A stretch of DNA of 32,000 nt from Promethearchaeum syntrophicum (GCF_008000775.2 NZ_CP042905.2:2040001-2072000); one strand, 5' to 3'; positions 16,043 through 19,564 are shown, numbered from the stretch's first letter. Notes: generated from the sequence alone by a model not told the origin. Numbers and translations: made by a program.

Positions 16043-16747
16043 ATGATTGAATATTTCGTTTATTTCTTCCAATTGTTGCTTGTCTGTGGTGCATTTTTTA
16101 TTTCATTTACTCTTCTAAAACAGAATAAAAAATACCTTGGGAATCAATTGTTATCTGCTTCTCTAGGACTTGTTGGCATATATGCACTCTTGCTATTCAT
16201 CTATAAAGTTCTAAACAGTGCCACTCTTCTTCAAATTTGCATTAGAATTGGATTTTCTGCTTTATTATTCTCAGTATTTCTTCTATTTTGTACAATTCAA
16301 GTTCTTATGTATTCTTCTGTTATATTTAAAACAAAAAAAATGAAATTAATAATTTTCTTCTTGTTAGCACTAAGCATCTCAATAATTCTATTTGTTTCGG
16401 ATTGGATTTTAGTACAAAATGAGGATATCACAACTATGGAATATTATATGCCTGTATTTATAGCTTTCGCAGGATATATTGCATTTATGCTGATCTATTC
16501 ATCGATTACTCTTTATATATTTGGAATAAGAAAAAATACCGGTAAATCCAAACAATATATGTGGTTTTTCTTTATAGGGCTTGTATTTATGATTTTAGGT
16601 TTGGTAACAGAAGGTTTGGGTTCTGCAATTGAAGGTTTGGCTGGATTATTCGATATGCTGTTGTTTATTTGTTTATCTATCGGTGTGATTTTCATGGCAT
16701 TATCTTTATTGAGAAAAAAAGAGAAGAGTAATTTAGCTTCTAACTGA
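16043..16747 (+). CDS. Seven-TM membrane protein, paralogue of 25015-25713
   Basis: Seven hydrophobic helices by eye. Landmarks shared with the other copy include LLKQNKKYLGNQ versus ILKRDSSYKGNQ and VLMYSSVIFKTKKMKLIIF versus IFIYSTTWLKFKTQKIIF. Confidence 0.55.
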   Translation: MIEYFVYFFQLLLVCGAFFISFTLLKQNKKYLGNQLLSASLGLVGIYALLLFIYKVLNSATLLQICIRIGFSALLFSVFLLFCTIQVLMYSSVIFKTKKMKLIIFFLLALSISIILFVSDWILVQNEDITTMEYYMPVFIAFAGYIAFMLIYSSITLYIFGIRKNTGKSKQYMWFFFIGLVFMILGLVTEGLGSAIEGLAGLFDMLLFICLSIGVIFMALSLLRKKEKSNLASN

Positions 16748-16778: not shown

Positions 16779-16930
16779 AGATTTGGGTAACTTTTTGCAT
16801 AAGTAATCATGAAATTCCCATGTTTACGAAATTCCGTCATTTTTCCCAAATATTCAATTCTTGGCTAACCCAATAAGCCTTAATTTTTTAAACATACCTA
16901 TTTTTTCCATCTCTACGCTCGAATTCAGAA
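16779..16930 (-). pseudogene. Truncated relic covering the last ~17 codons plus 3' UTR of the HesB/IscA-like gene; it is copy A of a ~150-bp repeat
   Basis: Aligns with 18686-18836 with a few substitutions and indels. The stop TAA has become TTA. The copy ends abruptly at ...gaattcagaa, where the 34-bp repeat begins. Confidence 0.65.
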
Positions 16931-16962
16931 CAATTGTTTGGAAAAACTTTTTAATATTTTTT
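16929..16962 (+). repeat. Copy 2 of the 34-bp direct repeat, an ectopic duplicate of the 3' end of Fe-S paralogue 2
   Basis: aacaattgtttggaaaaactttttaaTatttttt, compare 15969-16002. Confidence 0.85.
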
Positions 16963-17195
16963 AAAAAAAATTGAATAGATAGCTAAGCTAAGAAAAATAA
17001 AATTATCATTAAAAAAGATAAAATTAAGGATGCTTCTTGAACAAATATCATAAATTTCCTAGGCATTTAGAACGATTAAGTGACTATTATCAATTGATTT
17101 GATGAATAATGTTCTTTTAGAAGATAATTTATAAAAAGTTTAAATATTAAATGAAACAAAGGAAAAATATTACAGTAATCCAAATGTGATAAAAA

Positions 17196-18569
17196 ATGAT
17201 AAATACTATCCAAAAAAAATTCCATCCAATCGCAAGAAATTTAACCATTTTAATTATTATTATCCAAATTTTATCGATAAGTCAAATAATATTTTGGTTT
17301 CAATTAAAGCAAGAATTAACTGAATTACCAATTCTTATTTTTACTATACCCTTTCTTCTACATCTGATTTTTCTTTTCATTTCAATCTCCTCTTTAAAAA
17401 AGAATCCTTTGGATTTTCCAAAATTTTCATTAATAATATTTTTGATTGCTTTAAGTATTTCATTAATATTTAGTAGATATGGCTTTTTTGAAACGGATCC
17501 TGACATTCGGCTACATAATCTCCTAATTATAATCTTTATTTTTTATATCATTTGCATTATTGTCTATTTAATTATTTTATTCGTAAATCTGATAGAAAAG
17601 AACCAATTAATTGAGACTTTTCTTGAAGATCAAGTAGAAATGAACATAAATTCACACAAATCGATAGATTTCAATAATGCAGAAAAAATTTTAGCTATTA
17701 ACATTATAAAAATAATTAATCGAATTTTCGAGCAAAAAAGAATTAAAATATGGTGGATAAATAAAGTATATTCTGATTCTCTTTATGATTTTAATTCCAA
17801 TCACTCAAAAATATTTATAATAATCCCTAATGTGGTCAAATACTTTGCGGAAAAAGCCAAAATTGATGAAAAAATTAAATTTGATGATGTTTCTTCAGAA
17901 TTAAATCTAAGTTCTTACGCACTCAAGAAGCTTCTCCAATATTTACGTGATAAATCAATATGTAATTTAAATTTAAGCCAAGATAATATGTACATTGATT
18001 TCGGTCGTTTTGTAAAAGATCAAATTGTAGATTTATCAATTCAAAATCTGGCTTCTTCTTCACCAATTCCTAATGATAATAATATTAGTAATCCAATATA
18101 TAAACAGAAAGAAGTTCAACAAAAAAGCAAAATTACTGCAGGTCTTTTTGGTATATTCCTTGGTGATTTTGGAATCCATCATTTCTATCTAGGAAACATC
18201 AGCAAAGGAATTCTTATGCTTGTTTTTTGCTGGACAGGAATCCCCGGTATTATAGGTTTAATTGAAGGAATTATGATTTTAGGCTCGTCAGATCAAGAAT
18301 TTGAAAATAAATATATTATTCTTTCTTCAAGTGCGAACTATTCTCAGAAAATTACGAATTATCATAATAATCGATCTCAATCCTCATCAAATTCAAATCT
18401 AATAAATACAGCTACTATACCATCCTCAGAGAATTTGAACCAAGATAAAAATTCAAGAGTTTCTCCTACTCTTTCAATTAAAAACTCTTTTTGTCCAAAA
18501 TGTGGAAGGAAATTAGATGGATGGTTTGAATTCTGCCCACAGTGCGGATTAAAACTACCGAATAATTAA
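17196..18569 (+). CDS. Multi-pass membrane protein with a TM2 domain and a C-terminal zinc ribbon
   Basis: The TM2-domain signature is GLFGIFLGDFGIHHFYLGNISKGILMLVFCWTGIPGIIGLIEG. The C-terminus is CPKCGRKLDGWFEFCPQCG. The N-terminal third is strongly hydrophobic. Confidence 0.6.
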   Translation: MINTIQKKFHPIARNLTILIIIIQILSISQIIFWFQLKQELTELPILIFTIPFLLHLIFLFISISSLKKNPLDFPKFSLIIFLIALSISLIFSRYGFFETDPDIRLHNLLIIIFIFYIICIIVYLIILFVNLIEKNQLIETFLEDQVEMNINSHKSIDFNNAEKILAINIIKIINRIFEQKRIKIWWINKVYSDSLYDFNSNHSKIFIIIPNVVKYFAEKAKIDEKIKFDDVSSELNLSSYALKKLLQYLRDKSICNLNLSQDNMYIDFGRFVKDQIVDLSIQNLASSSPIPNDNNISNPIYKQKEVQQKSKITAGLFGIFLGDFGIHHFYLGNISKGILMLVFCWTGIPGIIGLIEGIMILGSSDQEFENKYIILSSSANYSQKITNYHNNRSQSSSNSNLINTATIPSSENLNQDKNSRVSPTLSIKNSFCPKCGRKLDGWFEFCPQCGLKLPNN

Positions 18570-18685
18570 TTTTTTAATTATTCTGATGTACACGAGAAAT
18601 ATAAATTAATTTTAAATTAAATCTTTTTTAATAGAAATTAAAAGAATAAAAAAGGTAAAACATTGTGAGTTATTAAAGAAATGTT

Positions 18686-18836
18686 AGATTTGGGTTACTT
18701 TTTGCAAAGTAATCGGGAATTCCCCATGTTTACGAAACTCCGTCATTTTTCCAAATATTCAATTCTTGGCTTACCCAATAAGCCTTAATTTTTTAAACAT
18801 ACCTATTTTTTCCATCTCTACGCTCGAATTCAGAAC
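18686..18836 (-). repeat. Copy B of the ~150-bp repeat, covering the intact gene's 3' end and 3' UTR
   Basis: See 16779-16930. Confidence 0.8.
18712..18746 (-). promoter_or_regulatory. Candidate SECIS-like hairpin in the 3' UTR
   Basis: The minus-strand RNA is AUGAC-GGAGUUUC-GUAAACAUGG-GGAAUUCC-CGAU. It forms an 8-bp helix that includes two G-U pairs. UGAC and CGAU can form tandem sheared G.A pairs. The apical loop is A-rich. The element starts about 25 nt after the stop codon. Confidence 0.4.
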
Positions 18837-19082
18837 TAAATCATCCATTTCCTTATCTATGTATACCGGACAAGGAGTATCTTTTATCTCTATTTTTCTG
18901 AATTCACATTTCCCGTGAACTAAATCTTTTCCCGTAAAAGGATTTTCTTCAATTTTTAACTGAACATCGTACACAATTCCTCATCATCCATGAGTTTTTG
19001 AATAAAATATTAAAAAAACCGGAGATTTTAATTCACTAGCGCGACGAGAGATGAATCCCAATGCATCTGCGGCTATTTTCAT
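18771..19082 (-). CDS. HesB/IscA-like protein with tandem in-frame UGA-UGA, a candidate selenoprotein (alternatively a pseudogene)
   Basis: The ATG at 19082-19080 is preceded by AGGTGA (19094-19089) with a 6-nt spacer. There follow 32 codons (MKIAADALGFISRRASELKSPVFLIFYSKTHG), then TGA TGA at 18986-18981. The same frame continues GI plus the 67-aa track ORF. The total is 104 codons including the stop. Confidence 0.5.
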
Positions 19083-19564
19083 TGTAATTCACCTATAATT
19101 TCCTTTAGTATAAGTAATTTTAATTTTTATCCTTTTTAATCCGTTCTTTGTTTTTTCTAAGTTTTCTAAATTGACTTTTTTCATTCCTTTTTTTGGTCCA
19201 ATTTTGTAGAATAAATATGGGTGCTAGCATTTGTATAGACACTTATCAAGGTTTAGCATAAAGCTTTTAGATTCTCCATACTTTATTTTAGGTAATATAA
19301 CGTTTTCATTAACGCCAGTAAATGAGTCATTTCGGCTTCTATTATTCAAATCGTTGGAATAACACCCCAAAATTCCCATTTTTGAATAAGAATGAATATA
19401 AAAATAACCGAAATGATTAACAATTAATAGAATATTTACGAGTAATTAATGAAAAATTCTTAAGAATATAAGAAAAAATATAATATAATACTAATAAAAG
19501 TTATAAAAATTGTATATAAAAAAATTACAGATATGCAAATATAATAACAAATACGTGAAAAATC

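Follow-up and report, generated by a model that had tools for sequence, protein, structure and literature searches.

A candidate SECIS element of the Asgard type downstream of two adjacent UGA codons in Promethearchaeum syntrophicum

The minus strand of a 32,000-nucleotide (nt) stretch of the Promethearchaeum syntrophicum genome (GCF_008000775.2, NZ_CP042905.2:2040001-2072000; hereafter the window) carries a putative selenoprotein gene (18771-19082) with two adjacent in-frame UGA codons. The 3' untranslated region (UTR) of this gene contains a structured RNA element (18755-18689), which is very probably the selenocysteine insertion sequence (SECIS) of a small selenoprotein mRNA. It appears to be of the Asgard type and would recode both UGA codons. 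A first-pass annotation of the window had proposed a eukaryote-like SECIS candidate at this site. Orthologues and covariation support the SECIS part of this proposal, whereas a bona fide eukaryotic SECIS could not be upheld: Rfam gives no match, and the Asgard class fits. Selection has preserved helix, core and loop of the element within a gene family whose members all retain UGA-UGA.

Covariation and architecture of the element

The core of the element is a hairpin that reads AUGA-C-GGAGUUUC-GUAAACAUGG-GGAAUUCC-C-GAU on the minus strand (18746-18712). Its AUGA is separated from the stop codon of the UGA-UGA gene by 24 nt. In both respects the first-pass annotation was accurate: the sequence that it quoted was read identically, and it had placed the candidate about 25 nt after the stop. 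The arms GGAGUUUC (18741-18734) and GGAAUUCC (18723-18716) form helix II, which comprises 8 base pairs (bp), two of them G-U. They enclose the 10-nt apical loop GUAAACAUGG (18733-18724), which contains the run AAA and has G as its last nucleotide. Helix and loop thus agree with the earlier description.

Covariation was determined with an alignment of ten distinct 50-nt elements. The helix II sequences are entirely different between clades, yet 98.8% of the cells are paired. The 5' and 3' arms, GGAGUUUC and GGAAUUCC in the window, read GGAAUUUC and GAAAUUCC in locus L001, GGUGCAUC and GAUGCAUC in L005, CCCACAUC and GAUGUGGG in L007, CCCAUGUC and GAUAUGGG in L011 as well as CAGAUUUC and GAAAUCUG in L012. 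Compensatory double changes that affect both sides were found at six of the eight pairs. The covariation score amounts to 0.753 compared to 0.259 ± 0.053 in shuffles, and none of 500 shuffles reaches 0.753. When the partners are slid by 1-3 columns, the score is at most 0.24. RNAalifold, unaided, proposes the same eight helix II pairs.

In the alignment AUGA, the loop AAA, the last loop G, the closing C-G pair and GAU are invariant. AUGA is present in 14 of the 15 loci. The first-pass annotation had predicted a quartet of U.U, G.A, A.G and C.C pairs between UGAC and CGAU. The sequence fits UGAN/NGAN, so that this quartet can form: AUGA occupies 18743-18746, and the opposite side consists of GA (18714-18713) and U 18712, the partners for sheared G.A/A.G and U.U pairs. 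The N positions are C 18742 and C 18715. In seven of the ten elements, this N.N position beside the core is unpaired, as expected of the fourth position of a quartet. Among close relatives, the spacer between stop codon and element has diverged with insertions and deletions; the element differs by two wobble-preserving transitions only.

The orthologous 3' UTRs, which had been named as the place to look for AUGA/GA, the helix and real covariation, provide all three. The arrangement AUGA, N, 8 bp with their loop, N and GA is found in 12 of the 14 further loci of the family, with compensatory changes. Relative to the end of the stop codon, its start ranges from 4 nt upstream to 35 nt downstream. 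The loops in these 12 loci comprise 10 nt, or 11 nt in L005 from Candidatus Harpocratesius repetitus (AAAAAGUAUGG). The other two loci are long-loop variants. In L013, which is type II-like, the loop measures 18 nt and contains a CCU/AGG ministem. L010 (735-790 on scaffold_429053, ENA ERZ23498500), with 29% protein identity the most divergent member, combines AGGA as its core with 7 bp and a loop of 20 nt that contains AAAA, and is enclosed by a long outer helix CCCCC..GGAG/CUCC..GGGGG. Its AGGA departs from the [A/G]UGA consensus and may represent a variant of the core.

The covariance model R1, derived from the family elements, assigns 60 bits to the window element. Apart from this element and a duplicate described below, R1 detected nothing above 13.6 bits when the window and about 35 kb of sequence flanking the related loci were scanned; the long-loop variants L010 and L013 were missed by this model.

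How often such a motif arises by chance was estimated with descriptor scans of 64 kb, using dinucleotide shuffles as controls. A loose descriptor that tolerates up to one mismatch finds three sites in the window compared to 2.05 ± 1.4 in shuffles. This means that the bare motif is unremarkable. A strict descriptor (AUGA, N, eight paired positions, a loop of 9-12 nt, N, GA) finds the element as the sole site in 64 kb, and shuffles yield 0.065 sites per 64 kb. For 60 nt of a single strand, this corresponds to a chance of about 6e-5.

RNAfold predicts a larger arrangement around the core hairpin. A lower helix, helix I, is composed of UUUGG (18755-18751) and CCAAA (18693-18689) with pair probabilities of 0.97-0.99. 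It encloses an A-rich internal loop, the SECIS hairpin and a second small hairpin. The first-pass annotation had expected only weak A-U pairs below the core, which does not hold for this helix. The internal loop AAAA (18750-18747) lies between helix I and the core, at positions that are A-rich across the alignment. The second hairpin, UACUUU-GCAA-AAAGUA (18711-18695), has a GNRA-type loop, is located 3' of the SECIS hairpin inside helix I and is present in both the minimum free energy and the centroid structure. Partition function calculations for the window give the pairs of helix II probabilities of 0.82-0.95; for two orthologues, the range is 0.84-0.98. A local self-hairpin of GGGGAAUUCCC, which had been considered as a competitor that might dominate the ensemble, has a probability of 0.03 and was ruled out as the dominant fold. 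The folding energy by itself is unremarkable (z = -1.0).

Outer helices like helix I with other sequences are found in most clades, e.g., AACCA/UGGUU in L005, GAUUC/GAAUC in L009 and L012, and CCCCC/GGGGG in L010. The second small hairpin has counterparts as well: CUUU/AAAG in L001-L006, GAUU-GUAA-AAUC in L005 and CUCCU/AGGAG in L007, L011 and L014; L010 also has one. In most orthologues, an oligo-U run follows just downstream of the element. One clade displays a third small hairpin (L007 1609-1632, L008 2275-2298, L014 648-671, L011 1581-1604). It is flanked by (A/U)UGA...CGAU and located after the SECIS and the CUCCU/AGGAG hairpin and before the oligo-U run, and its geometry corresponds to no clean kink-turn.

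The UGA-UGA gene, its family and a decayed copy

The putative selenoprotein gene starts with ATG at 19082 and comprises 103 codons followed by TAA (18773-18771). Codons 33 and 34 are the adjacent in-frame TGA codons (18986-18981), for which selenocysteine (Sec) is proposed, yielding the motif G-U-U-G. Translated with Sec at both positions, the product would read MKIAADALGFISRRASELKSPVFLIFYSKTHG-U-U-GIVYDV...KKLRLIG. The public record of the gene is a 32-aa N-terminal fragment only (UniRef A0A5B9DBS2, 'uncharacterized protein', Promethearchaeum syntrophicum). Its 32 residues are identical to the gene product before the first TGA. Since gene callers stop at the first UGA, the full gene was missed in annotation.

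Genes for tRNAs including tRNA-Sec or for the Sec machinery were not found within the window. For P. syntrophicum MK-D1 (GCA_008000775), however, Sec-containing SelD, FrhA, FrhD, HdrA and three Prx-like proteins have been listed (supplement of Huang et al., 2024, PMC11227280), and according to this literature MK-D1 is Sec-competent.

Relatives of the product were sought by word-indexed searches of 5.8 billion proteins, using the Cys-substituted sequence and a family profile; in addition, phmmer was run exhaustively against 1.84 billion representatives. Few were recovered. They comprise 14 further loci with 29-90% protein identity to the window product, originating from two Promethearchaeum sp. 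metagenome-assembled genomes (MAGs), Candidatus Harpocratesius repetitus, a Promethearchaeota MAG and marine or sediment metagenomes. Every full-length relative in the databases reads 'GWWG', because gene callers applied genetic code 4 to short contigs. At the corresponding site, the DNA of all 15 loci has GGN-TGA-TGA-GGN. The searches of the 1.84 and the 5.8 billion proteins revealed no homologue that has Cys or Trp codons at both positions. On both sides of the UGA pair, the protein is conserved in frame down to 29% identity.

The public gene calls of the family occur in three forms: code-4 proteins from short contigs, which show WW; N-terminal stubs of 32 aa; and C-terminal stubs of 40-74 aa. 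As the calls are either fragmented or based on code 4, the abundance of the family is underestimated. L014 (588-602, Promethearchaeota MAG JBQSIJ010000101.1) has an extended reading frame that terminates at the very UGA contained in the AUGA of its SECIS, so that stop codon and core overlap.

The host protein has no match in Pfam and none to TIGR01911. The model NF041239 ('CC/Se motif family (seleno)protein') aligns over nearly the full length with 18.2 bits compared to a cut-off of 40 (E 0.0019). At most, the host protein is a distant relative of this family. An AlphaFold2 model computed from ten family members has a predicted local distance difference test (pLDDT) value of 88 and a predicted template modelling (pTM) score of 0.77. 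Foldseek searches of the model against solved structures yielded 1r94 (E 3.7e-4, TM 0.60), followed by 2d2a, 1s98 and 1x0g, i.e., IscA/SufA proteins. This suggests an IscA/SufA (HesB)-like fold. In the predicted model, both Sec positions lie in the beta-hairpin turn between the first two long strands. Presumably, this turn corresponds to the site of the cluster-ligand cysteine in the G-C-S-G motif of IscA.

The host protein resembles the A-type carriers IscA and SufA in its size of about 100 aa and its predicted fold, but lacks the C-terminal CxC motif of IscA. The HesB-like selenoprotein (TIGR01911) differs by a single Sec in UxGP (PMC13188914) compared to the adjacent Sec pair in G-U-U-G. 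CC/Se proteins carry CxxU instead of G-U-U-G, and the score of the host protein is below the curated cut-off of this family. A 2026 review (PMC13188914) lists 11 archaeal selenoprotein families and gives CC/Se (NF041239) without the mark used for families that occur in archaea. A literature search for adjacent Sec-Sec gave only irrelevant matches. The host family appears to be unreported: it is neither among the seven Asgard families (PMC11227280) nor among the 11 archaeal ones (PMC13188914). On balance, slightly more speaks for than against an undescribed selenoprotein family restricted to Lokiarchaeia, with about 100 aa, an IscA/HesB fold, an obligate Sec-Sec in G-U-U-G and no detectable Cys homologues, whose SECIS in a three-way arrangement with helix I and the GNRA-type hairpin would represent a new Asgard SECIS architecture.

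The putative selenoprotein gene is preceded by a small reading frame (MGILGCYSNDL...LYKC, 19091-19379, minus strand). It has an in-frame TAG at 19226 and continues as HPYLFYKIGPKKG... to 19091. Its FYKIG.KK stretch recurs upstream of the gene in L001. This frame could be a frame-disrupted or misassigned small gene.

At 16779-16931 (minus strand), the last 63 coding nt are repeated together with the stop codon and the whole 3' UTR element. This decayed duplicate can be aligned to 18836-18686 with nine differences. All of these lie after the coding part, and the stop codon TAA is altered to TTA. The first-pass annotation had read the changes in the duplicate as keeping the pairing and retaining GA. 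This holds only in a register shifted by one nt, which moves the GA. The duplicate has three changes in the 3' arm and the N position, and in the orthologous register two pairs are broken. Its helix has a probability of at most 0.11 compared to 0.82-0.95 in the main copy. Therefore, the duplicate is a decayed copy that provides no evidence for covariation, and it was excluded as paralogous support. The 49.5 bits it scores with R1 are due to sequence similarity. Compared to the outgroups, the gene-attached copy shows only A>G transitions, which convert A-U and U-A to G-U and U-G, and the loss of one lower-helix G.

The two copies constitute a 151-nt direct repeat of the gene 3' end and SECIS region that flanks about 1.75 kb (16932-18685) with a gene for a 457-aa membrane and zinc-ribbon protein (17196-18569). 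In L001, the element directly adjoins the homologue of the gene 16043-16747; MK-D1 therefore has an insertion of about 1.75 kb. Because the repeat ends just 3' of the 3' strand of the lower helix, the gene retained a complete element after the rearrangement. Retention of the intact gene-attached copy and loss of the helix in the detached one fit a functional element.

Alternative explanations and significance

If the element is the SECIS of this mRNA, its core AUGA/GA(U) would form a kink-turn-like motif. This motif might recruit the archaeal Sec elongation factor along with Sec-tRNA(Sec), either directly or via an adaptor; as SBP2 is absent from archaea (PMC4989117, PMC11227280), an extra adaptor would be required. 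The two UGA codons, about 235 nt upstream of the element, would then be read as Sec and not as stop. The product would be a 103-aa protein with G-U-U-G on an IscA/HesB-like scaffold.

A structure with such a core could also serve other purposes. AUGA...GA can form a K-turn-like core, most orthologous elements have the oligo-U run just 3' of them, and no binding factor of Asgard SECIS elements is known (PMC4989117). It is nevertheless unlikely that the element is unrelated to UGA decoding and conserved for regulation or termination, as a general kink-turn, a binding site for L7Ae or a determinant of mRNA stability or 3'-end formation. In 15 of 15 loci, the element co-occurs with a gene that has an in-frame UGA-UGA. 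A stability or terminator hairpin would need neither the SECIS-specific loop AAA and terminal G nor fixed lengths of helix and loop, and termination in archaea requires only a U-run. In addition, neither C/D boxes nor matches to small nucleolar RNA (snoRNA) or K-turn families were found over the element. An even smaller chance is left to read-through of UGA by means other than Sec, i.e., by near-cognate Trp or Cys insertion or a local change of the code, with the hairpin as a general stimulator. The translation of orthologues with WW by gene callers (code 4) would agree with it, and the case for Sec at the UGA pair is comparative. However, MK-D1 uses the standard code, and its own annotation ends the gene at the first UGA. 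MK-D1 also has SelD in its Sec form as well as other selenoproteins (PMC11227280), the element fits the SECIS consensus of the clade (PMC4989117, PMC11227280), and the protein searches described above revealed no homologue with Trp or Cys instead.

A chance hairpin or mere phylogenetic inertia downstream of a pseudogene is hardly credible. About two loose-descriptor sites per 64 kb are expected by chance, and the four closest orthologues are too similar to be informative, with wobble changes only. By contrast, the expectation for the strict descriptor is far below one site, distant orthologues pair with wholly different helix sequences, the controls with slid partners collapse, and the frame is conserved on both sides of UGA-UGA even in the most distant member.

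It has been proposed that Asgard SECIS elements connect selenocysteine decoding in archaea with that in eukaryotes. To our knowledge, all of these elements have so far been bioinformatic predictions in a handful of gene families. The element described here adds an instance that covaries independently, in a gene family absent from the published lists of Asgard selenoproteins. Its occurrence in the cultured lokiarchaeon MK-D1 provides direct experimental access, and the public 32-aa fragment record can be corrected. If the SECIS reading is true, one SECIS would have to decode two directly adjacent UGA codons. In this case, a vicinal diselenide would arise in G-U-U-G, a motif with a formal analogy to the redox motif G-C-U-G in mammalian thioredoxin reductase, and would be of interest to selenoprotein chemists.

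Relation to known SECIS classes

Two published models describe SECIS elements of Asgard archaea. In the lokiSECIS, AUGA precedes and GA follows a 9-bp stem; the apical loop of 11 nt begins with adenines and its last nucleotide is an ultraconserved G, and the element is located near the stop codon (Mariotti et al., 2016, PMC4989117). In the type I eSECIS-like model, a GA_[G/A]A core is combined with a 7-15 bp stem, in which at most two mismatches are allowed, and an 8-20-nt loop; some other Asgard lineages have loops that begin with G[U/G]AAA (Huang et al., 2024, PMC11227280). The window element displays AUGA 5' and GA 3' of the stem, the required stem length, a loop within 8-20 nt and a stop-proximal position in the 3' UTR. 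Its upper stem has nine positions, i.e., C.C and eight pairs. As in the published Asgard elements, the helix is short, the loop of about 10-11 nt has adenines near its start and an invariant terminal G, and one element would serve more than one UGA. The loop start GUAAA corresponds to the published G[U/G]AAA variant (PMC11227280). Both models differ from the present case in the host gene, which is outside the seven Asgard (2024) and the 11 archaeal selenoprotein families (2026, PMC13188914). A further difference is the nucleotide before the terminal loop G, which is G in the window and not A.

Several points weigh against the reading as an Asgard SECIS. The window loop comprises 10 and not 11 nt and starts with GUAAA and not with AAAAA, the base of helix II is C.C, and helix I encloses an extra small hairpin that is outside the published model. 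Part of the primary-sequence conservation reflects shared ancestry, because all 15 loci belong to one gene family. All support for the SECIS role, including Sec insertion, the transcript 3' end and the fold, is comparative and computational. Furthermore, no curated model recognizes the element: Covariance models had been suggested as a check, and Rfam 15, eukaryotic SECIS included, gives no match either at the gathering score (whole window) or at E<=10 (18500-18900). This last objection is weak. Rfam curates no Asgard SECIS family, and the published lokiarchaeal elements are equally undetected by archaeal, bacterial and eukaryotic SECIS tools (PMC4989117), so that the miss is uninformative.

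With eukaryotic SECIS elements (RF00031 and related), the window element shares the AUGA_AA_GA logic: a non-Watson-Crick quartet UGAN/NGAN, an internal loop rich in A, adenines left unpaired in the apical loop and the location in the 3' UTR. It differs by the shorter helix II of 8-9 positions (PMC4989117), by the missing Rfam match and by its occurrence in an archaeon without SBP2, the protein that binds the eukaryotic kink-turn. SECIS elements of methanogens (Methanococcales/Methanopyrus) also reside in an archaeal 3' UTR and have a kink-turn-like internal motif. This type was rejected, as a scan with the published eaSECIS-like descriptor found no GAA_A bulge with flanking stems in the 214 nt after the stop. 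A lokiarchaeal SECIS was reported to be non-functional in M. maripaludis (PMC11881835). A C/D box sRNA was rejected, too: the 3' UTR contains neither box C (RUGAUGA) nor box D (CUGA), and Rfam has no snoRNA match over the element.

Taken together, the published Asgard features, the lack of an Rfam match, of a GAA_A structure and of C/D boxes assign the element to the Asgard lokiSECIS/type I eSECIS-like class, as judged from the published verbal consensus. Its core is eukaryote-like, but it is no bona fide eukaryotic SECIS. Within the family, the Harpocratesius element matches the canonical lokiSECIS form exactly, with 9 bp, an 11-nt loop and AAAAA...G.

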